DNA from: Trichodelitschia bisporula
Lineage: Eukaryota
Assembly (NCBI GenBank): GCA_010356995.1
Contig: ML996703.1
Location: 434,001 to 498,000 of the forward strand
Length of the DNA: 64,000 bases
Direction of reading: 5' to 3'
Shown: positions 10,663 to 36,302 of the stretch, piece by piece
Numbering within the stretch: position 1 is the first letter of the stretch
Layout of the letters: each line of letters begins with the position of its first letter
Translations under genes and position numbers: made by a program
Notes under the pieces: model-generated
What the model was told of the DNA's origin: nothing
Databases searched by the model: none
The model's input: the letters and a program-made list of their open reading frames with translations, nothing else

Positions 10663-12726
10663 ATGTCCACGCAACCGCATACAATTGGCTCCCTGCCGGT
10701 GCCACTCTTTGCCGGGCTCGTAACCACCGGCGTTATCATCGGCCTCCTCATCTTCGGAATTGCATACCGAAAGGTCATACGGGACTTCGGTCTGGCCATG
10801 CTCTACGCGCCTCCTCCTCGGCCGCGCCCGCAGCAAGCAGACCACGCCTCGGTGCAGGAGCTCATAGCGCTGCAAGCGAAGAACCGTGAGCGCATCCAAG
10901 CGCTGGCGACCCTGCTACCAGAAGAGGACATCCGCCGGATCAACCTGCAAGGCCGCTACGGCATGCGTTACGGCCCACAGCACTACCAGGTTGCGGAACC
11001 CCCTACGCCGCGCGTTTGGGAGGAGCTGCGCCCAAACCTTGAAAACGAGCTCCGCGCTGAAGGCTACTCAGAGCCCGCCATTCATGACGCCTCTGTCTTC
11101 CCGAGCAGCATTGCGCCACACGATTCCGCCAGCCAGGTTCCGCCTCGTCCCGAAAAGGCTACGCGCGTGCCTCCAGAGCGCATCCGGCAGTTTCTCAGGG
11201 CTGCCCTCAGTGATCTTATCAGCGAGCAAGACGCTCTGGATGCGCGTTCCGCCGCCGCCGCCGCCGCTACCCGCCACATCCCCATTACGCAGCTCTCTCG
11301 CTCTCTCTCCCGCAGCACGAGCAGCTATGCGCATGTTCCGCCGCACCGTCCGGACAGTTTCTGGCCTCTGGGGCATCCGCAGCAGGACTTGGAGTCGCAG
11401 ACCGGAGGGAGAGGGTTTGACCAACAGGATGCCTACGAGATGCTGGAACTACCCAGACCAGTTACTCATAGCTCGCCCCACCGTGCGGCTTCAGAACGCC
11501 GGCGGGAGCCTTTTCGTCGCATGAACTCCGGCTTCACCCAATATGAACCGCGCCGCCATTCCTCCCACATCGAGGGCGGACTGGCCCCTGGAGAGGGGTT
11601 GTCAGCCAACGATCGCATCAAGATCCATGCAGCATGTATTGCCGAGGAACAACGGCGAAAGGAGCGGGAAGAGGAGAAAGCGAGACTGGATGCTTACGAG
11701 CGCTTGAACATGGAAGCGCGGAAGCGTGCTGGGGAGGAGCTGCGGTTGGAGCGGGAGGAGGTGAAGCGCTATGAGCGAGAAGTGATGAAGGATCAGGAGC
11801 GGGAGGAGAGCATGCATCAAGAACAGAGAGAGATGATGGAACGGGAGGAACGGGAGGAGCAGGATTGGATGGCACGTCCTCCAACCGAGCGTCAGCGCCT
11901 TCCCTCAGTGCGTGAGGACCCTGTGTATGGGTACCCGGAGGCGAACTTTATGCTTGGAGACCCTGAGCTGAGCCCGAACGACGTCCACCCACGCTCGACT
12001 TTCCTTGACAGCGATTCCGAAGACGGCAAAGCGAACGTCCACGAAATGCCCGAACGCGCTCTCCCGACTGAGCCCGCTATGCCTGTCCCTCCCGAGCGGG
12101 CGTACACGGAGTCGGTCTATCCAGAGCCCGGCGAACCCGATTACCCTCCCACTCCGCGCAATCCCGGCTCGGACATCTACAAGAGCTCGACTTACTCAGA
12201 GCTCGTCCGCGAGACCCGCGCTGATCTCGATCGCCAGCCGGCGCCGCGTACTCCCTCACCGCCAGCTGAGCTGACACGCCACCCTACACTGCTCGAAATG
12301 GTGCGTCCGAACCAGAAACCTCGTCGCAAAATCGACCCCATCGACGAGATGCTGGCCGGCCGGATTGAGAGCGGGAGCGACATCACCAGCAACATCATTC
12401 CGCCGTCTAGCATCATGTACTCGCCGCGCAAGACGCTGCCGCCAGCGAAGATCCCGTCAGGTTTCCGTGTTTTGGGCATGGAGGTTGATTCCCAAGTCGG
12501 CATTCCGAAGAACAGTGAGCTTGAGCCGGAGCGGAAGAGAATGAGAGGCCACAAGGTGATGCGCAAGGCGGAGGAAAAGCGCAAGGCGCAGCTGGAGATC
12601 GAAGCGTATGAGACGCAGAAGCGAGCCAAGGCGATGGAACTGCTGGGCTTGAAGCCCACCCCGGGCGCTCCTGAACCGTCATCTGATGGTAGTGGGAGTG
12701 GCAAGGGGAAAGAGCGTGTACCGTAG
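10663..12726 (+). CDS. Hypothetical protein with N-terminal TM helix, central E/R-rich coiled coil and Pro-rich disordered regions
   Basis: Uninterrupted ~687-codon ORF; hydrophobic LFAGLVTTGVIIGLLIFGIAY; no recognisable domain. Confidence 0.65.
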   Translation: MSTQPHTIGSLPVPLFAGLVTTGVIIGLLIFGIAYRKVIRDFGLAMLYAPPPRPRPQQADHASVQELIALQAKNRERIQALATLLPEEDIRRINLQGRYGMRYGPQHYQVAEPPTPRVWEELRPNLENELRAEGYSEPAIHDASVFPSSIAPHDSASQVPPRPEKATRVPPERIRQFLRAALSDLISEQDALDARSAAAAAATRHIPITQLSRSLSRSTSSYAHVPPHRPDSFWPLGHPQQDLESQTGGRGFDQQDAYEMLELPRPVTHSSPHRAASERRREPFRRMNSGFTQYEPRRHSSHIEGGLAPGEGLSANDRIKIHAACIAEEQRRKEREEEKARLDAYERLNMEARKRAGEELRLEREEVKRYEREVMKDQEREESMHQEQREMMEREEREEQDWMARPPTERQRLPSVREDPVYGYPEANFMLGDPELSPNDVHPRSTFLDSDSEDGKANVHEMPERALPTEPAMPVPPERAYTESVYPEPGEPDYPPTPRNPGSDIYKSSTYSELVRETRADLDRQPAPRTPSPPAELTRHPTLLEMVRPNQKPRRKIDPIDEMLAGRIESGSDITSNIIPPSSIMYSPRKTLPPAKIPSGFRVLGMEVDSQVGIPKNSELEPERKRMRGHKVMRKAEEKRKAQLEIEAYETQKRAKAMELLGLKPTPGAPEPSSDGSGSGKGKERVP

Positions 12727-12885
12727 ATTCGACAGGTGGAGCTGGAGAACGATGTGATATCGAGAGTTTTAGAGAATAGAAATAGAGCTTAGACTAGGAT
12801 ATCCCAACGCCTGTAATGGTATCTGGTAGAACTGAGCCGCTAGGAACGCTCCAAGTGCCAATTTAGAACACAACCGTGTGCCAAA

Positions 12886-15092
12886 TCAATGTTGCTTCTC
12901 CCGCTGGCTTGCTTTGTCATCACTCCCCTTTCTCCCCTTCTGACTCGAAGGCCGGCGCAAGTCCGCGATGGAGATGGGAGGCTTCTCCTTCCTTACCTTT
13001 TGATCGTCCGAGCTCATCTTCCGCAACTCCTTCTCCAGAGTCATCCCCATCCGTTCAAGCAGCCACTCCGCCTCATTCTTCCGACCCATGAGCGGACTCC
13101 GCGTCCCAAGCCAGCTCCACTTCAAATTTTTCGACTCTTCGTCCCCATCCGCCTGTCCCAGATACTCCGAGCGCTTCTGGGTGGAGTCATTATGCACCTC
13201 TCCTGGGGCCGTCCGGTGCAGATCTGGCTTCGCTTCGTCCTGTCCGATGAGCTTCAGAAACCAGGCCCACTCGCTATACGAGTACTTCTTGGGCGGGCGG
13301 GCGTGTATGTCCTTTGCAAGGGTTCTCTGCTCCCGTGCCAGCACATAGTGGTAGAGGTGGATATCACGCTCCAGCGTGTCTCCTCGGTCGCTCGCTTCCT
13401 GAGCGCCGATGAGTTCGTCGATTTCAACCAGTCCAGCCAGACGGTCTAGAGCGTGTTGATGCACGCTGTCATGGCTCTCGTCCTCGGTGCTCTTCGAGGC
13501 ATTCGCCATGAAGCCTGGCGGCTTCTGCACCTCGATGTCACCGTCAGTGGCGGCGTTTTTGGAAAAGCCGTGAAGTGTCGCTTTGAAACGGGACCGAAAT
13601 CCACTTTCATCGGGCAAGATCGTGAGGCTGCCTGCCCAAATGATGAAATTCTCAAATGCTTTGATGACAGTTTCTCCCATGTTTGAGATGAGGACGGTGA
13701 GCGTTGGGACTGCAAGGAGGGACCAGAAGACGAACATGGGCTTGCCAGAGTTCGACATCGGGTATAAGTCGCCGTAGCCGATTGTCAGTAGCGAGGTGTA
13801 CGCAAAGTAGAGAGCTTGAAAATACGACCAGCCCTGCTTTTGCTCTGTCACCCAAAAGATAGCAGCTCCCACCAGCCATAGGCTCATGGCTGCAATACCA
13901 GACCATGTGAGAGCATACCAGCGGCGTTTCTGCATGGCGTAGTCCTGGATCTTGCGCATGGCCAGAAACTCCTGCTCTCGGCGCCGTATCTCGGACAGGT
14001 TGTGCTGCGGGAAGGTGTGTGTGTGAAACCAGCCGATCTTGATTGTTCCCTTGTCATGTTTGATGGATCTAAGAGCCTCCTCCCGTTTCTTCTCCATAAG
14101 GCGCGCCTCCATCTTGTTTTTGCCACGGTCGAGCACCAACGCGCGTATGGAACCGATGACCAAGCCGACGGAAACGATGCCACAGATCGCAAAGGGAAAC
14201 AACAGGGAGCGTCCAAGGTGCGTCTTCGGGGAAAAGTCGGAACCGAGCCCCACAGTCAGAAGCGTAACGTCGGCCCAATACAGGGCATCCAAATACTTCC
14301 ACCCCTCAACAAACTTGAAAACGCAGGCGCCAAGCAGGAGGTACATCAAAAGCATGATGGTTTGCAGCATCAGGGTGCGTTGGCTAACGGTCAACCGAAA
14401 TTCTCTACCGTAATGGCCTTTGTAAGTGCCATAGACGGTGATGACGAGGAGGAAGGAGACGACACAGTAGAGTACCGCAGCGAAGATGGCGTAGTAGTAG
14501 GCTTGAGTAAGGGTATACTTCTCACGAGGATAAAGCCGAAGCGCCGGGCTGTTCCCCGCAACAACAAGCGCGATCAAGAGGGCTGAGCTGAGCAACCATC
14601 CGCCGATCGTAATCGTGTGAGCTATGGCAAAGGGCAAGCGGCGGGCCATCTTCAGCAAGAGAGCCAGATTCGCCGCCAGCGAGAAGAAGAGTGACAGCGC
14701 GTTGATTGCAATTACCCTGGATTTGCTGTCAGTACAAACCGCGACAGAGAATACTCACTAACCATCCTGGGTCCTTAACCGGTTCTCCATGGTTTTCGCT
14801 ACTCCCTTCAGGAATGGAAGCCCTCCATGGCTCTACCAATGCGCATATGCTGAAGGCGTTGGCCATTGGACCGAATGTACCGGCGATCAGGGGACAAGCT
14901 GTGGATGCAAACCACCACCGGCTGTAAGCAGTTAGCACTGGCGCATTAGCTGTAAATGATATCGGCGCCGTAACTTGGGTCAAGGAAGTCCTGTTCAGCC
15001 TCTTCCTCATGTTCCTCTCCAGGCTTGTATGGATCCTTCTCGAGATCCTCTGCGAGCTTGTGGACAGGCGCGTCCACCCCAGGGTCGTTCAT
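12886..15092 (-). CDS. TOK1: Outward-rectifier two-pore potassium channel (TOK1-like); 2 introns near the 5' end
   Basis: Starts MNDPGVD...RWWFASTACPLIAGTFGPMA; two pore loops TLLTVGLG and SLLTIGYGD; multiple TM segments. Confidence 0.9.
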
Positions 15093-16673
15093 GGTGTGTG
15101 TGAGAGGAGTGGTGGACGAAATCGCTGACAGAAAACGGACACAACAAGAGCACTAAAAAGCATAAGGTTAAGGCTAGCGGTGGGGCATTCTAGGTTGTTA
15201 AGATCTGGATCTTCATTCCAGGTTAAAGCATAATCGAGACCACATGGTCTGCCATCTCGTGCACGATGACGACATGGCGGTTCTTGCGAAACAACTGTGG
15301 ACGCGCTTTCCCTGTTAGGTGGCTGGTGGCATTGGTGCATGGATGGCATGAGTGCATGGATGGCTCAGGCCACTTGGCGATACTGGTACACCTTTAACTC
15401 AACTTCATGTTGCTGGCGACCTGCTCTCTGCTGCAAGTTGACTTCTTACGCATTCTTCTCACGCATCCTTCTCATATCATTCTCATGCAATCTGTATTTC
15501 CCTGCTTACACTGGCTTATACGCTTCATAACTACAGAAACGGACAAGAACATGAGGTTATCCTTTCAATGCCGGCTATCTACCTTGCTCGCAATACCATG
15601 GAGCAAGGCAACGCGTCTTTGGTGAACAGAACTTCATTTTCCTCTGATGTACTGGGATCTGTCTGCTGGTGCCCTTTAAGTTCTGTTGCTTTGGTGCAGT
15701 ACCCGTGCAAACATCTGGCCTCCTACTCTCACCTGGCTAGGATACCTTAATGGGGTGCGGGTCGCGATCACCAGCTTACTACGGTACTGCATGCCCGCCG
15801 AAGGTATACACTGGTTTGCAATGTAAGAAGTCGGACGAGGATTTGTGTTTCGTATCGGGCTTGGCTTACGAATCTCATCATGATGCCGATGGGCACTCGT
15901 GGATATGCGGAATACTGGCCGGCTACGGCTGTTCTGGTTCTATGCCGTCTTCTTTTCATCTCTTCCTCCTTTGTTCAAATCGCTTATAGCATCTCGTAGC
16001 CCTTCGGTTGTAAACCGACGTAAGCAGGGCTCGGGCTGAGAGTAATTGCTGTGTCTCAGGGCTCCAATGCTGCGGAGCTTGTGGTGATGGCTGCCCGCCT
16101 GCCGGAGGCTTGGTGAAGCAAGCAGCACGCAGCGGAGGATTTGCCAGCTGTAAGCTCAGAAGCGTATCGTCCCGGAGCAAACACGGCAGTGAGCATTCAC
16201 CACCTCGTACAGCGCCGTACAGTAGCTTGGGTTCACTAGGCGGTTCTGTCTTGATACAAACTGGCCTCATTGCAAAACTCCTCGAGGCTTAACTATTCAA
16301 TTTGCACCTCCAAGTTCCATTGCTCGCCTACCGGCCAGGGCTAGGCGACAAAGCAAGCCGCGGTATCGCGGTACTCCACAGGTCTGGGTGGTTCCTTCCT
16401 CAACTGCTAAGAACTACTCCGTACCTTCCTTCCGTTGATTGATCCCCCCTTTTTCCAGCAGCTTCCAAGAAGCAACACCTTCACTTAAATTCCTTTCTCT
16501 GCCAAATCTCTTCTTTTTCCCTTGCACAACCCTCTAAATCCTCAACTCGCCCACCCCCATTTGCTTCGTCCATCTTCTGCATCGTTCTCCTCTCTATCAA
16601 CAGAAATCCAAGTGGTAAGGCTTCGCAGCCTTTGTCCTCTACAATTCATTTACTAACGTATGACAGCTTCAAA

Positions 16674-18583
<1,910 letters not shown>

Positions 18584-19087
18584 ACGAGCACTCGTCTCTC
18601 AGCCTCAGGATAGCACTCTCACGACAGCAGCTTCTATGATGCCTTACCTCTACTTTGACATATGTCTTTAGTTTCGGGAACTTGCCGCTAGATAGTTTCC
18701 ATTGGCAATGACAGAAACTGAAGCATACATTATGAGTGAATTGTAATGATCTGTTTGGCCTCTTCTAGTCTTTCAAAGCTAAGGCCGTTCGCTGTTCCAG
18801 CGTGATGGAAGGGACCCACGACGAAGCTTTGCCGGTGCCTCACTTCAAACGTCAATTCTCTTGCACTGCTTCCATGTCATTTACACCCCTATAAAGGTCT
18901 ATCGTGCTTCATCGGTGGACGCTCTGACAAGGCAGGTACCACTTGACGTCGTCGCCTTCTCCAGTGACGCTACCTAACTGGTCCGGCCCCGCGCTCCGGC
19001 ATCGGAAGCCATTATACCCAACCTTGCCGAGCTTCTCCCTACTTCCATCCCCAACCCACAGTGCTCAAGGTCCAAAAAAGAAGAAAC

Positions 19088-19097
19088 AAAAAAAAAA
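19088..19097 (-). terminator. Pol III oligo(dT) terminator of the tRNA-Leu gene
   Basis: T10 run on the minus strand, 3 nt after the discriminator A (19101). Confidence 0.8.
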
Positions 19098-19116
19098 TAT
19101 TGAGAGGAGAGGGGTT

Positions 19117-19174
19117 CTAACAGAGGATGTTAGTATGAGTTTTTGAGGCTCAGAAGATTTCGGTGTAAACTAAC
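19117..19174 (-). other. Spliceosomal-type intron (58 nt) in the tRNA T-loop / B box
   Basis: 5' GTTAGT, branch site TACTAAC, 3' TAG; splits GGTTCG|AACCC. Confidence 0.88.
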
Positions 19175-19200
19175 CGAACCCTCGCTCTTTCGAACTGCGG

Positions 19201-19214
19201 ATTTGGGCAAGAAG
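19201..19214 (-). other. Canonical tRNA intron (14 nt) at position 37/38
   Basis: CTTCTTGCCCAAAT lies one nucleotide 3' of the TAG anticodon; removing it gives a 7-nt anticodon loop. Confidence 0.85.
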
Positions 19215-19233
19215 CCTAAACACAGCGCCTTAA

Positions 19234-19288
19234 CTGGGAATGGGGGTTAGCGGGGTACAGGGGGCGATTGTTGGAGACAACTGCTTAC
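19234..19288 (-). other. Spliceosomal-type intron (55 nt) in the tRNA D-loop
   Basis: 5' GTAAGC, branch site GCTAAC, pyrimidine-rich CCCCATTCCC, 3' CAG; inserted after the D-loop GG. Confidence 0.88.
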
Positions 19289-19335
19289 CCACTCGGCCAT
19301 CCTCCCAGTGAAGGGTTGATGCCGAAGTTGCAGGG

Positions 19336-19349
19336 TTTAAAAAATATAA
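19336..19349 (-). promoter_or_regulatory. TATA-like element about -30 to -43 from the mature tRNA 5' end
   Basis: TTATATTTTTTAAA on the minus strand within GC-richer flanks. Confidence 0.5.
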
Positions 19350-19815
19350 CCCCCTGTTGCACTAGATGGAGGGCCGCACGGGAAGGCTTGATGGTTTTGG
19401 CCGTAGATACGTTGTGCAATAGCGACAGAAACTGCCGAAAGGAGCCATCGCAGGTGTGGACTGGCTATCCAGCGGATGCGGGCAGGTGAGAGCGGTGATC
19501 GTGCTCCTGGTCCGGCATCACATCAGGCAGGTCGTCACCCGCACATCCCACCCTTCCCACAAAACACAACAGCCCTACAGTAGCCTGCCATCGTCCCTCC
19601 CGTCAAACGCGGATGGCACCTGCCACCAAACGCAGATGGCACCCGCCACCAGTTTGTTCGGGCCAAGTGCGCAACAGCCAGCCTCGCGGCTACCCGCAGG
19701 ATATCGCTTGTATTGATATAGACCGCCCACGGCGGGCCACGTCACGTCTAGACAACGTGCATATCGACATTGCCAGAGCATTATCTCGTATTTTGCTACT
19801 GCTAGTACTGCTACT

Positions 19816-21721
19816 ATGAAGCTTTTGCACCTATCCCTCATCTTCCTCGCCCTCCTGCTCTCCGCCCTCGCCAGCACGCCCGAGCATCCCCCCGGTGGTG
19901 CCCCCCCAAACGCCCGCTGCGGCCCCGGCAATGCATGCCGGCTGTCGGAGTGTTGCTCCGCATGGGGCTTCTGCGGGACTACGTATGCTGCTTGTCCCCG
20001 CTGAGCTGCGCCGCTGACGAGCTAGGCCGATGCACTGCGGCGATGGGTGCGTGTCCGGGGCGTGCGAGCGCGCTGCGGGCCCGACAACTTTACCTGCCCC
20101 CACTTCAAGTTCTTCAGCGCCCCCTTCAAGTTCCTCAGTGGCCCCCCCAGGTGAACGATCCGCCTTCGCCACCGCGCCCGGAAGCTTCAACGTCAGTGGC
20201 ACATCCGGCGTGCCTGCGATGCATGCAGCGCTGCTGGCCGACGGGCGGGTGATGTTCCTGGACAAAGTGGAGAACTACACGCAGGTGCGGCTGGCGAGCG
20301 GTGCGTACGCCTACTCCGTCATATACGACCCGGACCGCAACACCGTGGCACCGTTAGCGGTGCGCTCGAACGCCTTTTGCAGCGGGGGCACGTTCCTTGC
20401 AGACGGGACACTGATCAGCGCGGGCGGGAACGATGCGCTGCCGAGTGTGGACCCCACCGTCGGGAACGGGTTCAGCGCAATCCGGTACCTCGCCCCTAAC
20501 GCCCTGGCGGCTGGGTGGACCGAGACCGGAAACAAGCTTGCGAGCGCGCGCTGGTATGCCAGCGTACAGATGCTGAATGACTCGTCCGTGTTCGTGGCGT
20601 CGGGGAGTTTGAATGGTTTGGACAGTGCGGCGCGCGCAAATAACAACCCCACGTACGAGATGCTGGACCCGGCGGGCGTGCCGAGCGGGGTGAATTACGT
20701 GATGGATCTTCTGCAGAGGAATGAGCCGTACTACATGTACCCCTTTGTGCACCTCCTGCTCGACGGCACGCTGTTTGTATTCGTCGCGCGCCAGAGCCAG
20801 ATCTTCGATCCGTACGGAAATCGCGTGCTCAAGGAGCTGCCGGACCTCCCGGGCCTGTTTCGCACGTATCCCAGCACGGGTACGAGCGTGCTGCTCCCTC
20901 TGTCGAGGGCGAATAGTTACTCACCCGAGGTCCTGATCTGCGGCGGGGGAGCTTCGCCAGACATCAACGCGCAGACAGATGCCTCTTGCGGACGTATCCG
21001 GCCGCTCGACGCCACCCCGAGCTGGGAAATGGACCACATGCCGTCGGGCCGAGTGATGGTGGAAGGCGTCCTGCTGCCGGACGGTACAGTACTGTTTCTC
21101 AACGGCGCGGGCCGGGGCGCGCAGGGCTTCGGCTTCGCCAGCGAACCGGCCCTGGCACCACTGATCTACAACCCAACAGCGCCGCTAGGTTCACGCTTCT
21201 CTGTCGGCGCGCCTTCGACCATTCCGCGCATGTACCACAGCGTGGCGCTACTGCTGGCAGACGGGCGAGTGCTGGTGGCGGGTAGTAACCCAGTCGAGCA
21301 GCCGGTGCTGCAGGCGTCGGCGGGCGTCCCATTCCCAACAGAGTTCCGGGTCGAGATCTACACGCCGCCGTACCTGGCGGGCGCAGCGGCGGGGCGGCGG
21401 CCGACGAATATCAGCCTCTCGACTAGTGATCTGTATCCCGCGGGCGACGCATTCGACATCGGCTTTGTTGCGCCACCGGGGGCGAAGGCACTGCGGGTTG
21501 CGCTATGTCACGGCGGCTTCGTGACGCACAGTCTGCACATGGGCCAGCGGGTTGTGATGCTCGACACCGTCGGCTTTGTGCCGGGTGCGAGCGCGCAGAT
21601 GATTACGGTGTCTGGGCCGCCGGGTGCGAATGTTGCGCCGGCGGGGCCATGGTGGGCGTTCGTTGTGGTGGATGGGGTGCCGGGCGTTGGGGTGCCGGTG
21701 AGGGTGTTGCCGGTTCAGTAA
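19816..21721 (+). CDS. Copper radical oxidase (glyoxal oxidase-like, AA5_1) with N-terminal chitin-binding CBM18/hevein domain
   Basis: Signal peptide, CCSAWGFCGT hevein motif, intron 19983-20025, and NAFCSGG, RWYAS, RMYHS, THS motifs. Confidence 0.92.
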
Positions 21722-24535
21722 GGGGGGGGAGGCGGTTATATCGTCATTTTATTGCATTGGTGTTTTGACGCTGTGGTTGTGCTCCGGAGGTGACGTAGCT
21801 AAGTGTCACCCGGAAAGGTCGCGGCTTCCTCCGTCCGCAAAGACGCTCAGGCAGGGCGGCCGTGCGCGTGTTCGGAGGTGACGTCGCCCGTCCAACGACG
21901 GCGGTCGGGTCCGTCGTTGATCTCCCGTTCTCCCGCTCGTTGCGCGAAACGAACCATCGTATCCGATCGCTCCGATCTGGCGATGGGCGGTTCGGATTAT
22001 GATTTGTCTCAGGAAGAGAGACGTCGATATTATCATCCTTGTCTATAATTGACCATCCGTCGGGCGGCCCGCCAAGGCGATGGGAAAACGAAGGGGGCCG
22101 GTTGTCGGGGGTCGTGATGGCGCATCGTGGAGCATGTACAATGGGGCGAGTCTACGGTACGTACCGTAGTAAAGCGGCACCAGCGGCTTGTGAATCTAGA
22201 GCGGCGAGCGTGGAGACGATTGCTTTTACCGGTAGTAGTCGTCGTGGCCATGTCCCTTTCCCCATGCAGTGCCTCAACCAAATTCTCGTGCTGATGTGGA
22301 GAGGATTAGCAATATGTCAACGTCACAATGGATGAGAGAATGGGAGTCGCAGTGAAGATCAAGCCGCTCTCCACCCACACACGAGCAACTTTTGCTACGA
22401 CGTTGATGCTCTGAGTGGCTGACTTAAAAGCTCGCTAGAGTAGCGGGGACCAAATCAGATCATCAGTTGATGCGGGCGAGGCCATCAGCGGGACCCCCTG
22501 CAACGCACGGATGAGCATACCGTATTCAACGTCTCGGAACATTTCCTCGAGGCCCGCGCCACCAACCGCTTAGGATTTGGAGTGCAAATATGCAGTGGAG
22601 TCTGCACGGCTAGTGCCATTCGGATCTCTCCTTGAGCAATGGGGATTTTGAGAAAAAGAATGGGCGTACAGAGGGCGGTTGTGCGAGGCTACAGTGAGGT
22701 GCATGAAGGTTCCGAATGGACGGAGGGGTGATGGAAATCGATGGCTCGCGTAGGGCAGGTCTAGTCGCGAGGCGCTCGAGGCGATGATAGCGACCAGCCT
22801 GGCCAGCCGCTCCCGCTGATTTGCCATGTGCTCGAGGGGTTTGGGGTAGAGCTTATTGGGAATGGGAGGCTCCGTATGGAAAGGCTGTGATAATGATTTG
22901 AATGCTACGCGGATGAGGCGTTGTGGTGATTGGCTGTACGTGGAGAGTCTGGGCTGGAGCTGCACAACTGAAACGCCTTTTTCTCTGTGCGCGAGTCAGG
23001 CATTACTGCTGTGCGCAGAGCTCGACGGTTTGGGGGGATTGTACGATGGGATTTTTGCTGCAGCTGGGTGGGACGGGATTGAATATTGAAAGTGGTGCAT
23101 ATGTACAGAGGTACCTGTGGTCGGTCTTGGGTGGTACGTCTTCTGCTGGTCCGTTCATGAGAGTTTTACCCCTCAGATTACCACAGTAAATGTTGACCGC
23201 AAGTCTCTTCGCTGTAGTCGGCTACGCGTCCTACATAGGCAATAGCAGCTTCCAAGCCCCGCGCCGAACGGGAGGGGCATCGGGGGTTGATGAGGGGTGG
23301 AGCTGTGCCTAATGATGCTTGATCCTCGCAGTGAAGCGTCGGTCAAGGTCAATCTGCTATTCTCGCTGGTGGAACTATGTGGGGGGCAAAGTGAGAGTGG
23401 TACGTATGAGAAGCAAGCGAGCAGTTCATTTAGCACATGCTTCTTTTTGTTGACTGTCGACATTTGAACTGTCGACTCTTTTCCTATCCCATTGACCACA
23501 ACTGCCCACTGCCTCCCCGGTGTTACCCGACCGACGTTCCTCTCTCGCTTCCTCTCCAAACGTCCGCTTCCATCACCACCACCATCACCCCAATTCAGAC
23601 AAGCTTCATCGTAGCGTCAGCCCAGCGCCAGCATCCTAGCATCCTGACTTCGGACCTTTTTGGGACCGGAGATTTTTACGAATTATGGGATCCCGGTCTT
23701 TGTAAGGCCAATGTTGGGATAGCTTGTCCATTCAAAGTCGGTGCATTGCGCATATCCCCCCTTGCCGCGACTCCATCCAGACCTCTGCAAGCGGACGCGT
23801 AAGGTAAGGTTGTTGTTGGCCGGTACGGAGGTAATCGCCGCGGCTAGCTACAAGTCCATCAACTCACAACCGTCCGCCAGCAAGCAGGCAAAGGAAAAAG
23901 GCGGAAACCTGAAAAGCAGCCCACGACCAACGCCCACCGACGCCAGCAACGAAGCTCTCGCCTAGCTAAACCACCAACACGCCCCCCACCTCTCCGCGTC
24001 CCTATCCACATCGACGCCCCCCTCCATCCCCCCACACCACCATCACTCACCCCAGGCGCCATCTCCCAGCTGCCTCCCACTACGCCCAAACCCCCCAGGC
24101 ACACGGCAAGCAAAGCAGACAGGGCCTCCCTGCGGGCGGTCTGCCACATTACAATAACCTTAATCGACCCGCGTGCTGCGCGCCCACCCGCCCGCTTGCT
24201 AGCTTACCCTCAGCCCACACGTCCGGGGCCTCGTTTGCACTATCTATACATACCTATATACCCGCCAGGGCGACCCAGAAACAGACCCGCCATGTCTTTG
24301 AAGGTTTAGCCTACGCATTTCGTGCGCCTGCAAGATGTAACAGCTTTGCCGTCAATCTTTCACAGCTTTTTTGGTACTGATACTTCCACAGTGGTGAGTA
24401 CTCGTACTTCCTGCCTTTCCTCGCGGCCTCACTCTCCGCCCGGCTGCTCTTTTCCCAGCCATTCGTACCATACCCACCCCGCATAGCTCCATTGCGCCTT
24501 CCGACCTCCAAGCTGACTCCCCTCAAAGCAGAACC

Positions 24536-26029
24536 ATGGCTCTCTCCTCCACCGCTCCCTTCGAACCAACCCCCACCTCGCTCACCAACCTCGCGCGCAT
24601 CCAGCTCTACACTTGCGTCCCGGATGTTGGGCCCTTTAGTCTTCAACCCTCGGCACCTAAAGAAGTACACTATACATTCGCGCTCGCGCGCTTCGAGCGC
24701 ACAGAGCGCGTCTTCGAGCAGCGCGCCTATGAGAAGGATGTGCTGCGCGGAAGGCGTGAGGTCAACCTCGATGACGATGCGGCGCTCCAGGCTGCGCTCG
24801 CCGGCGTGCCAAACACATGGGTGCTCGGAAAGCGGAAACGGCGGGCGATACACGCCCATGCACCACCTAACACCCACTTCCGAGCCCACCACGCGCATAC
24901 CCAGAGCCTCGACACCCATATCCACATACTCACTCACCCTATCGACCCGACCACCCTACCCCGCAAATCGCTCCCCGCGCTCCCCACCGCCTCCCCGCAC
25001 CGCACCTTCCGCCTCGCCGCGGCCCGTTCCTCCGTCGTCTCCTTTCTGTCCTCCAGCTCGCGCTCCTCGTGGGCCGCATCCCGCCCACGCAACCCCCTTC
25101 TACAGCTCTTCCGGCCCGCTGCCGTGCAAGCCATGCCGTTCAACCCGCCCCCCTCTCCGGTGACCACGCCATGCTCGAGCGCCGGCGACGCCGCGGTGGG
25201 CAGCTCCGTCGGCAGCAGCGAGGGAATATCGTCTGCGCGGACGAGCGTGAGTGGGTCATTGGGCTCGTTCGAGAGCGGGTTCAGCGCGGCCAACATGGCG
25301 CGATTAACCGGGATGTTGGCTGTGCGCGTCGAGTTCGTGGCGCTGAAGCGCGCGTGTGCGGAGGAGGCGCGCCGATTCGCGGATTTTGCCCAGCACCAGC
25401 GCGTTGCACTCGCACTTATCATGGGCCGTAATCGACTGTACCTCGAGGAGCGCAAGGAGAGCCGCGTGGCGGAGATGAGACGGAGGCATGAGCGTGCGCT
25501 GGAGCAGCTTGAGACGAGGCATTTGGAGCGCGAGCTTGCGGAGTCGGAGCGGCAGCGTGCGGTAAGGGAGGAGTATGCGGCGCGGAATGCCACAGCGCTC
25601 AAGTACGTCAATCGGAGGCTGAGTCTGCTCGGAGAGGCGGCGACGAGTGATCAGCGCTCCCGGCTAGCGGATGAGGAGGGTGGTGTCGAGCGGATGGCGG
25701 CGAAGCATGGCCGCGAGATGCGGGCATTGCTTCGTGCGCAGGAAAGGGAGAGACTCGATTTGCAGCGTGAGCAGGAACGCGAGCTCGCCGAGTTTCGGAC
25801 TGAGCTGGAGGGGAATATTGAAGAGAATTATCGCGGGAAGAGGGAGGGGCTCAGGGTCAATCAGATCCGCTTGGAGGGGTTGGTGGAGGAGCGACGGGAA
25901 CGGATGGTTGCGAGGTGGTTTTTGCGCCTGCAGGCGTTTAAGATGGAGGATCCAGAGTTACGGCCTGGCCCGCCGTTGCCGCTTGCGCTGCTGGAGTGTC
26001 CGGAGGGGTTTGTGGAGGACTGGGTTTGA
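24536..26029 (+). CDS. Hypothetical protein with C-terminal E/R-rich coiled coil (true start uncertain)
   Basis: 497-aa ORF with coding-like composition; no recognisable family. Confidence 0.55.
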   Translation: MALSSTAPFEPTPTSLTNLARIQLYTCVPDVGPFSLQPSAPKEVHYTFALARFERTERVFEQRAYEKDVLRGRREVNLDDDAALQAALAGVPNTWVLGKRKRRAIHAHAPPNTHFRAHHAHTQSLDTHIHILTHPIDPTTLPRKSLPALPTASPHRTFRLAAARSSVVSFLSSSSRSSWAASRPRNPLLQLFRPAAVQAMPFNPPPSPVTTPCSSAGDAAVGSSVGSSEGISSARTSVSGSLGSFESGFSAANMARLTGMLAVRVEFVALKRACAEEARRFADFAQHQRVALALIMGRNRLYLEERKESRVAEMRRRHERALEQLETRHLERELAESERQRAVREEYAARNATALKYVNRRLSLLGEAATSDQRSRLADEEGGVERMAAKHGREMRALLRAQERERLDLQREQERELAEFRTELEGNIEENYRGKREGLRVNQIRLEGLVEERRERMVARWFLRLQAFKMEDPELRPGPPLPLALLECPEGFVEDWV

Positions 26030-26764
26030 GCGCTGGATGGAATGGTTGGATGGTGGCACGTCGGGTTCGGGCCGGGTGGGCGACCACGCGATGGCGGACA
26101 ACGCCAGGCCTTGCAACACGAAGACCAACGCCGTCTGCGCGGCTTGTGCAGTGCGGCCTCCCGAACAACATACATATGCGGCATTTACACGCTACCCGCA
26201 GCGGCGCCGGATACCCTGGCTTTCCGCATTGCAGGCGACGAGAACAGAGATTACCCTATATGAAGCTGCCCAGAGGCACGAATCCTGGCGAGCGCAACAG
26301 CATCGCGTCTGGTGTTCGAAGCAAAGCGACGAGACCCGCGTCGGGACGTCGTGCGCGGATTGGAAACGCAGGTGCCGGCGTCGCGGCTCGGCGCCGGCTA
26401 CCTAGGGAATCTTGGAGAGGAAAGTGGAACGGCCCCGCCGTAATAAGTACACATGCACATGCACATACATATAGCAATGCTAATGCTAATTTCAATCCCC
26501 TATGACGATTTGGCTTGTGTTTCTTTGCGGCTCTGGACGACGACGTGAGATTCTCTCTTCGTGACCCTGGAACCGACGAGGCAAGGGAGCATTTCGCCAG
26601 CGTACCGCGCCTGCGGGAAATAACACAACAGAGACGGCATTCAAGGGCATTCCTGCGCGTCGCGGTCATCGTGGGGTGTTTGCTTGGGCTTCAAGCCTCC
26701 CTGATCCATCTTAATCCTCACCACGATCCTCACCATAACGACCACCACAACGACAATCCTCACG

Positions 26765-28483
26765 ATGCGCCCCCAAACGCTTCTCCTCCTCGCCTCTCCA
26801 GTCGTAGGAATGGCCCTCGCCTCTCCACAAACAACATACACCCACCTCACGCCCTCCCCCCTCGCCCCACCCATCGCCATAACCCAGCTCTACCAACCCT
26901 TCACCACCTACCTTCCGGGACTAACCATCTGTCCCTCCCCACCCACCAACTCTCCCCCCTGCACAACCCTCTACACTCCCTCCCCGACCCTCATCTGCGC
27001 CACTACCCTCGCCCTTCCGCCCCTCCATTACACCATCACAGCCTGCGACCAATGGATCCCCTTCTCCACCCAGCTAGGCTTCATCCTCCCGCCCTCCGCC
27101 ACCCGGGTCACCATCCTGACGAGCACCTTCCTCGCCCCATGGGCGCATCTCACGCACCCGCAGGCCCTGCCCACGGTAAGCGTAAGGGTGTGCTCGAGTC
27201 CGGCGGGGACGAATTCTCCCCCTTGCCGAACACGCACCGAGCGTTGGGGGATCACGACGAAGACGAGCACGGCGACGAGTACGCGCGCAGTGGATGTCAT
27301 GACGAGCGTACCCGGTCCGGCAACTATGCGGATTGGGGAGCGGACGTGGGATATTCCTCCCGGCGGCGAGGAGAGGAGGTGGACGGGTGAAGTGGTGGAG
27401 ACGAGGACGGTGAGGGAGGTGGGTGTTTCGCGGGTTGGGGTTTGGATGGTGCGTCCGACGCCGACTGCGCTGGCTACTGTGGAGACTGCGGCGTGGATGC
27501 TCGGTGTGCCGGTGTCGGTGGCTGCGGCTCCGGGGGCCGGGGAAGAGGCGAGGGTGGGGGATGGGGACAGCGAAGACACAACAACGAGTGACGATGCAAC
27601 GACCACGGTGACGATGACGCGCACGTTGACGCGCACGCGGATGGTGCGCTTGAGCCGGACCGGAGGGGCTCAGGCGGCACCGGTGGCGGTGCAGGAGCCG
27701 GGGCCGGGAGCGGTCGAGGCTCCCGAGGCTGTTCCCACGACGGCGGTGGGCGGAGAATCGGGAACGGGCACCGGCTCCGGCTCCCGAGGCCGTTGCCACA
27801 TTGGTTCAGGCGTCTGCGGAGTCGGAACCGGTGCCGGTACAGGAGGTGGCGACGGGGACGTCGGCTAGGTGAGTCGGGTATATTGTCTGGTTGGGAACGG
27901 GACTGATGTTGCTAGGTTCGTTGGGGGCGGTTCGGGTGTAGTCAGGGCTTCGAATGCTCTGCCGATGGTGGGTTCGGCGAGCGAGACGGGCTTGGCCAGT
28001 TTGGCAAACTCTATGAGTTCGACAGGCTCGGCAAGCTCGACAGACTCGGCAAGCGCAGCAAGTTTGACAGACTCAACGAGCTCGACAAGCTCGACAGACT
28101 CAACAAACTCAACAAACTCAACAAACTCAACCAACTCAACAAACTCAACAACCTGGACGAGTTTCACGAGTTCGACCAGTTCAATCAGCTCGAGCAGTCC
28201 GGATAGTTCAATGAGCTCCACAAGTTCATCAAGTTTGGCACCTTCGACAAGCTCGGCAAATTCATCAATCTCATCAATCTCATCAAGCATGATAAGCTCG
28301 ACAAGCTCAAGTCTGCAGTGGAGTACGCTGCGAGGCTGGAATTCTTCTTCGTCGGGCGTATATAAGTTATATGCAAACCGGTTCGCTTCGCTTCGGTTCT
28401 TGTTATTCATGATTGCTTATATGTATGTACTGAGTGAGGATTTCGTCTTCTTGCTAGGCTCTCGTCTACGTAATACCTATTGA
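26765..28483 (+). CDS. Secreted Thr/Ser-rich protein; ORF stops at 27868 but probably continues after a frameshift and intron into the Ser-rich ORF ending at 28483
   Basis: Signal peptide MRPQTLLLLASPVVGMALA; Cys-containing N-domain (ITACDQWIPFSTQLGF); see frameshift finding. Confidence 0.6.
28017..28312. repeat. Degenerate 9-bp tandem repeat array (core ACAAACTCA at ~28102-28150)
   Basis: Repeated acaaactca / acaagctcg / acagactca units; reads STNSTNS on + and VEFVEF on -. Confidence 0.8.
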
Positions 28484-34663: not shown

Positions 34664-36109
34664 TTAAACAATCTCATCACGCCCTAATAACGCCGCCATT
34701 GGATCCGCCGCATTCGTTCGCTTTCTCCGATACTCCTCCATGTCCTCCTCTGTGACCCCGTTGCGCATCTCGTCTAGGGTACGCTTCCGCCGCTCCGTAT
34801 CAGCTTCCACGTCGCGCTTGCGCGGTTTCTCCTTCGCGGGCGGTGGGCCCATAGCCCCCTCATCCCGCCATGCAATCGCTTTGGGCTCTTCCTCGGGTTC
34901 CGCGCCCTCCAGCGCCGCAGCAGTCTTCATCCGGGCCGCCTCGTCAAACGCATGCCTGCCCTCCTCGCCCGTACAGTAGCTATTTCGCACCGTAGAGTGG
35001 CAGCACGCGTATCCCCAGACAAAATCCTTCCACCAACTGCCCCACACAGCCGTGTGATTGTGCAGCAGCACGTCCTCGGGGTACTTGCTCTTCGGCACCG
35101 GCTTAGGCGCGCCCTTAACCAGCCCACGCTCATCGTACTCGACGTACCGCTCCGACTCCACGACGATCGCATCCTTAGCCGGCTTCGCGAGGTGCTCCTG
35201 GCCACCGTATTTAGCAAGCAAGGCCGCCTTCTGCGCCTCGCGCTTCTCAGACCGCACAGCCAGGTCCTTTTTCCGCGAGAGCTCGCCGCTGGTGGGGTTG
35301 GCTTGGAGATGTAGTTTCTCGCTGCCGCCGCGCTCCTGCGTCTCCCACGCATACCGCTGTGCCTTATCGAACTCCGCCGCGTCGCCGGAGCGCCGCACAA
35401 AGTCTTCCTCGGCCACCAGCCGCGCCGCCTCGTCCGCCACGGCGCCCGCGTCCGCCATGCTGCGCGTCTTGGGGTCGTATTTTGCGCTCTCCAGGTCCAG
35501 GTTCAGCAGGTACTTGGCGGTGTCTTCGCGAAGGCGCAGGGCGCGGGCCGAGGACTGTGTGCGGCCCATGGTGGCTTCCTCCTCGTAGCGATCACCGTCG
35601 GCCTCCTTGTTGCGCTTATCCGGGTCGTCGTTATCGTCTTCGCCCAGCGCTTTGGCACGCTCGCGCTTCAGCGCCTCCAGCTCGTTGTACTCCTGCACCA
35701 CGCCCTCGTATTCCGCGGGATCGTATCCGTTCCACCGGTCGCGCTTCGCGTCCCAGCCCAGTTGAACGTCCTGCACAATCTCGTCGGCTTGGATGTCCTT
35801 GCCCGTCCATTTGGCGCCGAGTTTGCGTGGTCGTGAGAGGCATTCTTTCGCTTTGTGGGTCATGGCGCCGCAGTTCGTGCAGGCGCCTTTGCGGAACTTG
35901 GTTGCGGCGGGGCCACGCTTGGCGCCGCGGTCGTACCATGTTTGGGAGGAGGTGGAGTGGGTTTGCTGGAGACGTTGATGCTCGAGGTAGTCGGCGGAGT
36001 CGGGACCTGAGTCTGGGACGTAGAAGGGCTTTTGCGCGATGAAGGCGGGGATGTATTCGTTGCGGTCCTTCGGGGTTGCGTCGGGTTTACGGGGCGGTGG
36101 GGGTCCCAT
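34664..36109 (-). CDS. SLU7: Pre-mRNA splicing factor Slu7
   Basis: RNEYIPAFI, zinc knuckle [34 protein letters not shown]. Confidence 0.96.
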
Positions 36110-36302
36110 GATGGGTTGTCCTGTGAGAGTGGATGGGCGTGAGGGTGGGTTTGGGATGGTTGATGGTGTGTGGTGATGCGGAGACGCGGAGGTGATGTCG
36201 TGCACCACTGTATGAAGAATGTGTGGCGCGTGAGTGGCTGATGAACCCCGGAACTAAAGAAGGCGCATCACGTCCCAGCCTTTAGGGAATGGAATACGAG
36301 GG

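Follow-up and report, generated by a model that had tools for sequence, protein, structure and literature searches.

Organisation of the tRNA-Leu locus

We analysed a 64-kilobase (kb) window of the Trichodelitschia bisporula genome (assembly GCA_010356995.1, contig ML996703.1, positions 434,001 to 498,000 of the forward strand). The subject of this report is a leucine transfer RNA (tRNA) gene, tRNA-Leu(UAG), on the minus strand between positions 19306 and 19101. Features are numbered by their position in the window. The gene is split by three inserts. One, of 14 nucleotides (nt), occupies the usual tRNA intron position, 37/38. The other two, of 55 and 58 nt, fall in the D-loop and the T-loop and carry the signals of messenger RNA (mRNA) introns. 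This arrangement had been proposed from the DNA letters (the original prediction). The exons, the inserts, the 14-nt intron and a downstream run of ten T were all recovered at the positions, and with the sequence features, that it gave.

Exon 1 (18 nt; 19289 to 19306) provides the 5' strand of the acceptor stem, U8, G9, the 5' strand of the D-stem and the D-loop as far as G19. It contains an intact A-box-like sequence, TGGCCGAGTGG, the end of which is exactly the boundary of insert 1. Insert 1 (55 nt; 19234 to 19288) separates G19 from U20. It starts with GTAAGC, contains GCTAAC and ends with CAG; the A of the CTAAC branch motif is at 19247, 13 nt before the 3' end. Exon 2 (19175 to 19233) is 59 nt overall and holds the 14-nt intron. 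Its first part (19215 to 19233) corresponds, in the ARAGORN cloverleaf, to the remaining D-arm, the 5' strand of the anticodon stem, the anticodon UAG and G37. The canonical intron (19201 to 19214; i(38,14) in ARAGORN notation) comes next. The second part (19175 to 19200) comprises C38, the 3' strand of the anticodon stem, the long variable arm, the 5' strand of the T-stem and the T-loop up to G57. Insert 2 (58 nt; 19117 to 19174) is positioned between G57 and A58. It starts with GTTAGT, contains TACTAAC and ends with TAG, and the A of its CTAAC motif (19130) is again 13 nt before the 3' end. Exon 3 (16 nt; 19101 to 19116) completes the T-loop, the T-stem and the acceptor stem with their 3' strands and ends with discriminator A73. 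All of these features are on the minus strand. Residue numbers for the insert sites (19/20 and 57/58) were assigned from the ARAGORN drawing.

On the same strand, a TATA-like element, TTATATTTTTTAAA, occupies positions -43 to -30 relative to the start of the tRNA (19336 to 19349) and is a putative promoter element. The gene is followed by the trailer ATA and ten T (T10, 19097 to 19088; 19088 to 19100 with the trailer), which resembles a terminator for RNA polymerase III (Pol III). A further run of six T is found downstream, at 19079 to 19074.

The tRNA is recognised only when both inserts are removed

ARAGORN detected no tRNA in the whole window, and no match to an Rfam tRNA model was found anywhere in it, either at gathering thresholds or with E values up to 5. 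When ARAGORN was run on the window at 90% thresholds it made 20 calls, with introns of up to 1976 nt; these were disregarded as implausible. For the unjoined genomic stretch there were no ARAGORN calls. Conversely, when the exons were joined by their coordinates, and introns allowed, ARAGORN recognised the product as tRNA-Leu(tag), 79 nt in length, with an intron of 14 nt at position 37/38. Removal of one insert alone gave either no call or a poor tRNA-Trp with a 71-nt intron. A class II tRNA-Leu cloverleaf, with a long variable arm, UAG anticodon and A73, was thus obtained only after excision of both inserts. All stems then pair, and U8, A14, G18, G19, A21, U33, G37, G53-T54-T55-C56-R57-A58, C61 and A73 are all present. 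The original prediction had described a fully paired 79-nt type II tRNA-Leu with intact invariant residues, had warned that standard finders may overlook such genes and had proposed comparing the genomic with the spliced sequence. ARAGORN and the residue check agree with the description, and the warning was well founded for both ARAGORN and Rfam.

An excision scan was applied to both strands of the window. Every GT..YTRAY..AG candidate of 38 to 131 nt was cut out, singly (6051 excisions) or in neighbouring pairs (45650 excisions), and ARAGORN was run on each of the 51701 products. Junction-crossing matches numbered eight; all were at 19117 to 19288 and none were elsewhere in the window. A stricter version of the scan left two matches, both at the same tRNA-Leu locus. 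Since all matches fall at one locus, the tRNA-Leu result exceeds chance. The scan detected no second split tRNA gene within the 64 kb.

RNA contigs lack both inserts

Four public sequencing runs cover the stretch. Runs X1 and X2 are DNA, and possibly the source of the window itself; X3 and X4 share a single sample, from a different study. The runs were placed on positions 12000 to 27000 as contigs, not reads. The RNA label of X3 and X4 is a guess, with the splice joints of neighbouring genes as the sole ground for treating them as complementary DNA (cDNA). Seven such joints are present in X3 and X4 and absent from X1 and X2. After small permitted shifts, six of the seven correspond to GT..AG introns, of 44 to 135 nt, on the strand of the gene. 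Introns of the neighbouring genes are therefore spliced out in X3 and X4, but not in X1 and X2, and X3 and X4 hold cDNA.

At the tRNA-Leu locus, contigs of both X3 and X4 contain the joint 19116>19175. The 58 nt skipped are exactly insert 2 and read CT..AC on the plus strand. Therefore, the spliced RNA is from the minus strand, the tRNA's own. Contigs of X3 and X4 also diverge from the genome at 19234, and the continuation from 19233 to 19289 removes exactly insert 1. In X4 the 19 loose letters beyond this point match plus strand positions 19290 to 19308, and the contig extends to 2 nt upstream of tRNA position 1. The loose letters of X3 match 19290 to 19297 and are followed by Illumina adapter. 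No contig of the DNA runs has the joined form; in X1 and X2 the locus is unjoined, in single long contigs with no differences. Hence, both of the splice junctions singled out for checking when the gene was proposed are present in the RNA contigs and absent from the DNA contigs. Among the differences listed for the RNA contigs there is no 14-nt gap between 19175 and 19233. The canonical 37/38 intron is therefore retained in RNA that lacks both inserts. This is the order of events originally anticipated, with the spliceosomal-type introns removed first.

We also considered that the apparent joints could be artefacts, either because the window is misassembled or because reverse transcriptase switched templates. 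In favour of such an explanation, the evidence for the joints is from contigs rather than reads, and from a single sample. However, two DNA runs contain the unjoined locus in single long contigs without a difference, and the one letter shared at the insert 2 joint is too little for template switching. Moreover, the boundaries are exactly GT..AG, and an independent metagenome contig, described below, has the same type of gene. We regard an artefact as extremely improbable.

Three further features of the RNA contigs were noted. First, the X3 contig lacking both inserts stops at G10 (19297) and then reads into adapter, which means that many cDNAs end just before G9. A stop of reverse transcription at a modified G9 (m1G9), a modification that occurs in yeast tRNAs, is one possible, speculative cause. 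If so, the spliced precursor would already be undergoing modification. Second, across 19087 to 19097, an X3 contig (depth 48.9 of 73.8) has an eleventh T where X4 and both DNA runs have ten. This may be due to homopolymer slippage in transcription or library preparation. Third, in a potassium-channel-like gene on the minus strand, X3 and X4 skip 52 nt (14922 to 14973) for which there is no GT..AG register within 4 nt; the skipped piece ends TT..AG or GT..CA. This may reflect non-canonical splicing or an alignment that is ambiguous by 1 nt.

Signals and structures at the two inserts

The RNA contigs verify six GT..AG mRNA introns between 12000 and 27000, with lengths of 44, 44, 46, 46, 52 and 135 nt. 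They start with GTAAGT, GTTAGT, GTAAGG, GTACAA, GTATGT and GTGAGT, and five of the six have a CTRAY motif 9 to 12 nt before the AG. The tRNA inserts (GTAAGC..CAG and GTTAGT..TAG), with the motif at 13 nt in both, match these introns in size and signals. Both have the properties of U2-type introns: a 5' end resembling GTRNGY, a 3' YAG, a CTRAY branch motif, the size of an mRNA intron and exact removal from RNA. The two inserts are unrelated to each other; their local alignment score of 6 was equalled or beaten in 425 of 500 shuffles. Neither contains a run of four or more T (T4). Likeness to the mRNA introns of the window, lack of mutual relationship and absence of T4 runs had each been asserted at the outset, and each withstood these comparisons, the first against the six RNA-verified introns.

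Away from 37/38, where the mature domain serves as a ruler, the tRNA splicing endonuclease would need a bulge-helix-bulge, read here as two 3-nt bulges with a 4-bp helix between them. At insert 1, two of four pairs form in the central helix and none of four in the outer helix. At insert 2, three of four central pairs form, all of them G-U, and one of four outer pairs. The geometry is thus not formable at either insert and was rejected as a candidate for both; only the 14-nt intron sits at 37/38.

These results bear on the possibility that the inserts are not spliceosomal but are non-canonical tRNA introns, cut by the endonuclease via a bulge-helix-bulge. Red-algal, nucleomorph and archaeal tRNA genes are known to have multiple non-canonical introns, some of them in the D- and T-arms, according to the available parts of PMC3978253 and PMC4090602. 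Against this explanation, a bulge-helix-bulge cannot be formed, and all four non-canonical inserts, counting two in the metagenome gene described below, are GT..AG with CTRAY at 10 to 13 nt. The verified mRNA introns of the window have those same signals, and neither 37/38 intron in the two genes is GT..AG. We consider cutting of the inserts by the endonuclease very improbable. From the shared intron signals, the exact removal from RNA and the failure to form a bulge-helix-bulge, we infer that the spliceosome removes both inserts.

Insert 2 starts (19170 to 19174) and ends (19117 to 19121) with the same pentamer, GTTAG, and a near-B-box sequence is recreated where its final bases meet exon 3. 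This repeat and the near-B-box may be vestiges of the intron's origin, or may stand in for a promoter element.

A second split tRNA-Leu gene

A metagenome collection was scanned with a pattern comprising the end of exon 1, GT, 36 to 66 nt, AG and the start of exon 2. The scan yielded one locus, L001. This gene begins with an exon of 8 nt (1447-1454), followed by a 46-nt intron at residues 8/9 (1455-1500; GTGAGT..CTAAT..TAG), an internal exon of 10 nt (1501-1510) and a 64-nt intron at 19/20 (1511-1574; GTACGT..CTGAC..TAG). The sequence of the latter is unrelated to insert 1 of the window. The remainder of the gene (1575-1698) has an uninterrupted T-loop and a 63-nt intron at 37/38 (1594-1656) that is not GT..AG. 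After 1698 the trailer is TTC and then seven T. The genomic sequence gives no tRNA call; joined in silico, it gives a tRNA-Leu(tag) of 79 nt.

The mature sequences from the window and the metagenome share 71 of their 79 positions. Of the eight differences, six form three compensatory pairs: T-stem pair 56:70 is A-T in the window and T-A in L001, variable-stem pair 46:51 changes from C-G to G-C and pair 45:52 from T-A to G-C. The 19-mer that forms the first part of exon 2 (19215 to 19233) is identical in L001. By contrast, no similarity between the introns of the two genes was found, nor any similarity or synteny of their flanks (the flanks being compared by blastn or tblastn). As introner-like elements, the four inserts would be expected to have near-identical copies; such copies were sought by short-word blastn against the 64-kb window and the 3-kb L001 sequence, and only chance matches of 15 nt or less were found. 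Because the exons are conserved and covary while the introns are unrelated, these comparisons of sequence argue for selection on the spliced product.

In both genes the T tract begins 3 nt after the discriminator. The B box of L001 is intact, and its 64-nt intron has one T4 run. Seven open reading frames of L001 had no Pfam match. The excision scan also picked a 38-nt GT..AG piece within the 37/38 intron (1601-1638); it has no good branch motif and is not claimed as an intron. The exon 2 19-mer had a sole match in bacterial and archaeal genomes, L002, which lies inside a bacterial coding region without a tRNA nearby and was set aside as due to chance.

The 10-nt internal exon of L001, between two spliceosomal-type introns and known from its DNA sequence, is unusually short for a spliced exon. 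The 37/38 introns of the two genes also differ in length, at 63 nt in L001 and 14 nt in the window. Finally, the inserts in the window follow G19 and G57, and those in L001 are at 8/9 and 19/20. Across the two genes, one 79-nt RNA therefore has three different sites for spliceosomal-type introns. G19 and G57 are neighbours at the elbow of the folded tRNA, at the G19-C56 contact.

Transcription of the locus

The original prediction took the gene to be transcribed by Pol III. The A box, the T tract and the absence of T4 runs from the inserts are in keeping with that assumption. However, the spliced RNA continues past T10, and either Pol III or Pol II may make the productive precursor. In X4 the contig has 60 nt or more 3' of the joint, and X3 contigs, at a depth of 73.8, cross position 19087. 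Furthermore, insert 2 splits the B box.

Several features point to Pol III: the intact A box, the T tracts 3 nt after the discriminator in both genes, the T4-free inserts of the window and the TATA-like box. The available text of PMC3978253 describes upstream TATA boxes as important for the tRNA genes of some fungi, and as able to bypass TFIIIC in vitro. In addition, U6 of fission yeast is made by Pol III and carries a spliceosomal intron (PMC5855946, in part).

Alternatively, the productive precursor could be made by RNA polymerase II (Pol II). The tRNA would then be embedded in a short mRNA-like RNA, spliced co-transcriptionally and freed by RNase P and RNase Z, and the T tract would be a relic. 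Passage of the X3 and X4 RNA through the whole of T10 and beyond, the split B box and the TATA-like box at -43 to -30 are all in line with this proposal. There are precedents in the portions consulted of two sources: in Trypanosoma brucei, Pol II makes tRNA-Sec (PMC2943599), and in Arabidopsis a tRNA-like RNA is freed from GUT15, a Pol II transcript (PMC6152437). Even so, the flanks of the two genes, unrelated in all else, both keep the T tract 3 nt past the discriminator. No T4 run occurs in either window insert, and the A box of the window and the B box of L001 are intact. Poly(A)-selected libraries, if these were used, would show only read-through molecules, and fission-yeast U6 is a demonstrated case of a spliced Pol III transcript (PMC5855946, in part). 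A Pol II precursor is a tentative proposal, with a real but lesser chance of being right.

The genes to either side of the tRNA are both on the plus strand. A DEAD-box helicase gene is convergent with the tRNA gene, and its RNA contig ends at 18705. A glyoxal-oxidase-like gene is divergent from it, and its RNA contig starts at 19841. No contig connecting a neighbour to the locus is among the pieces listed, in a list without the pieces between 18705 and 19841. The tRNA-Leu locus appears to stand alone between its neighbours. The window also contains a gene for a Slu7-like second-step splicing factor (34664-36253, minus strand; Pfam E value 9.3e-85), the presence of which is probably a coincidence. 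In its gene content the window is fungal, and the Atlas clusters closest to the Slu7-like reading frame are mostly from Ascomycota.

A model for maturation of the tRNA

We propose, with good confidence, that the locus is a working nuclear tRNA-Leu(UAG) gene of this ascomycete. It would have ordinary U2-type spliceosomal introns in the D-loop and T-loop and the usual tRNA intron at 37/38, and would need both the spliceosome and the tRNA endonuclease. This is in essence what had been predicted, namely two spliceosomal-type introns plus a canonical tRNA intron. It now has the support of the RNA contigs, the mRNA-intron signals, the failed bulge-helix-bulge and L001.

In this model, transcription from an upstream promoter with the TATA-like box (-43 to -30) would give a precursor starting near tRNA position 1. 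The spliceosome would then remove both GT..CTAAC..AG introns in the nucleus, and the elbow between D-loop and T-loop could form only once both inserts were out. RNase P and RNase Z would trim the ends after the spliceosomal step. Trimming probably follows splicing, because the intermediate keeps the trailer and at least 2 nt of leader, and because the elbow needs both inserts to be out. The tRNA splicing endonuclease and ligase would take out the 14-nt intron last; that the spliceosome acts first is argued by the insert-free intermediate, which retains this intron. In yeast, the tRNA endonuclease acts after nuclear export, which fits the proposed order. A mature, charged tRNA is the inferred product.

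A number of points weigh against this model. The RNA evidence consists of contigs from one sample and one study, in which the joint at insert 2 is marked 'between: not known', and the RNA seen is a spliced intermediate with its trailer, not mature tRNA. It is possible that an uninterrupted Leu(UAG) gene is present elsewhere in the genome. Judged from the DNA sequence, binding of TFIIIC is doubtful at a B box split by insert 2, and read-through of T10 by the spliced RNA is not expected for Pol III. As for L001, the shared 19/20 site is partly a product of design, as the search pattern required a GT..AG insert in the D-loop. Its host could be a close relative, and it is a single locus for comparison.

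Some of these points would also suit a tRNA gene that is dying or already dead. The locus would then give a non-coding RNA, from which the inserts are spliced by chance splice signals, and would yield no functional tRNA. The RNA seen, an intermediate rather than mature tRNA, the divided B box, the possible copies of Leu(UAG) elsewhere and the silence of standard tRNA finders can all be cited in its favour. Yet after excision all stems pair and all invariant residues are there, and the splice sites fall exactly where the D- and T-loops are restored. L001, with different introns, keeps 71 of 79 positions with three stem pairs changed on both sides, and among the 51701 candidate excisions ARAGORN matches were obtained at this locus only. 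We consider a dying gene improbable, and retain the working gene with two kinds of intron as our preferred explanation.

Implications

Taken further, the data would fit an ascomycete lineage with a hidden class of tRNA genes, split by spliceosomal introns at 8/9, 19/20 and 57/58 and missed by all standard finders. Some tRNAs of this lineage would need both the spliceosome and the endonuclease. Their precursors would possibly be TATA-driven or made by Pol II, and such genes may be the sole source of an isoacceptor. We rate the chances for and against this wider reading as evenly balanced. If it is true, decoding of CUA and CUG would be tied to the activity of the spliceosome.

One small RNA seems to pass through both splicing machines, with RNA evidence for the spliceosome-type step. 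If this is so, tRNA gene counts would be incomplete in some fungi, since the gene escapes both ARAGORN and the tRNA model of Rfam, and the supply of one leucine tRNA would be linked to splicing capacity. The genes would also provide a natural test of the spliceosome on very short, highly structured and possibly Pol III-made RNAs, with terminal exons of 16 to 18 nt and, in L001, an internal exon of 10 nt. There would be a bearing on intron gain, too. Reverse splicing into an abundant RNA would be in line with three different sites within 79 nt, of which two lie at the exposed elbow.

Comparison with known systems

No description of a spliceosomal intron in any tRNA gene was found in open-access full text, though subscription journals could hold one, and the phrase 'spliceosomal introns in tRNA' was absent from the open-access text searched. 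The word 'spliceosomal' does not occur in the available portions of PMC4090602 and PMC8450103. In the parts available of PMC12530127, PMC13149111 and PMC10275265, tRNA splicing is presented as independent of the spliceosome and spliceosomal introns are placed in Pol II transcripts. According to the accessible part of PMC6108506, no fungal tRNA intron longer than 100 nt is known.

The 37/38 introns of both genes are like canonical tRNA introns (PMC10275265, PMC13149111 and PMC12530127, each in part), being of 14 nt in the window and 63 nt in L001 and not GT..AG, and in this they resemble those of other fungal tRNA genes. Conversely, the D-loop and T-loop inserts differ from canonical tRNA introns, having spliceosomal signals and no bulge-helix-bulge. 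Leu(UAG) genes of Saccharomyces cerevisiae also have a 37/38 intron.

A closer resemblance in outline is to the disrupted tRNA genes of Cyanidioschyzon merolae, nucleomorphs and archaea. These likewise have several introns at non-canonical sites and are missed by standard finders, as described in the available part of PMC3978253. In the same source, TATA-like upstream promoters are suggested to compensate for broken internal promoters in disrupted tRNA genes, and this may hold for the window gene as well. However, the introns of disrupted and permuted tRNA genes are recognised by structure and cut by an endonuclease, whereas the window inserts fail the structural test and carry mRNA-intron signals. 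The T. brucei tRNA-Sec and Arabidopsis GUT15 RNAs, both made by Pol II, would be a precedent if the read-through spliced RNA is the productive precursor. The window gene is unlike either in having spliceosomal introns inside the body of the tRNA.

Spliceosomal introns are also found in U3 small nucleolar RNA and in the ribosomal RNA of lichen fungi. Among small nuclear RNA (snRNA) genes, mRNA-type introns have been described in U6 of Schizosaccharomyces pombe, which is transcribed by Pol III (Tani and Ohshima, 1989, 1991), and in U2, U1 and U5 of Rhodotorula hasegawae (Takahashi et al., 1993, 1996), all of them cited in the available text of PMC5855946. As in these fungal snRNA genes, the tRNA-Leu locus has short GT..branch..AG introns that lie in a conserved, structured, non-coding RNA gene and are excised exactly from its RNA, and, like fungal U6, it has Pol III-like features in its TATA-like box and T tract. 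Unlike U6, the host RNA is a tRNA, which is outside the spliceosome, and the origin proposed for the U6 intron, by reverse splicing at the active site, is not obviously applicable. A further difference from the fungal snRNA genes is that two spliceosomal-type introns are accompanied by a third intron of another class, which needs a second splicing machine. Thus, spliceosomal introns in non-coding RNA genes are already known; what is new here is the tRNA host, together with an adjoining canonical tRNA intron.

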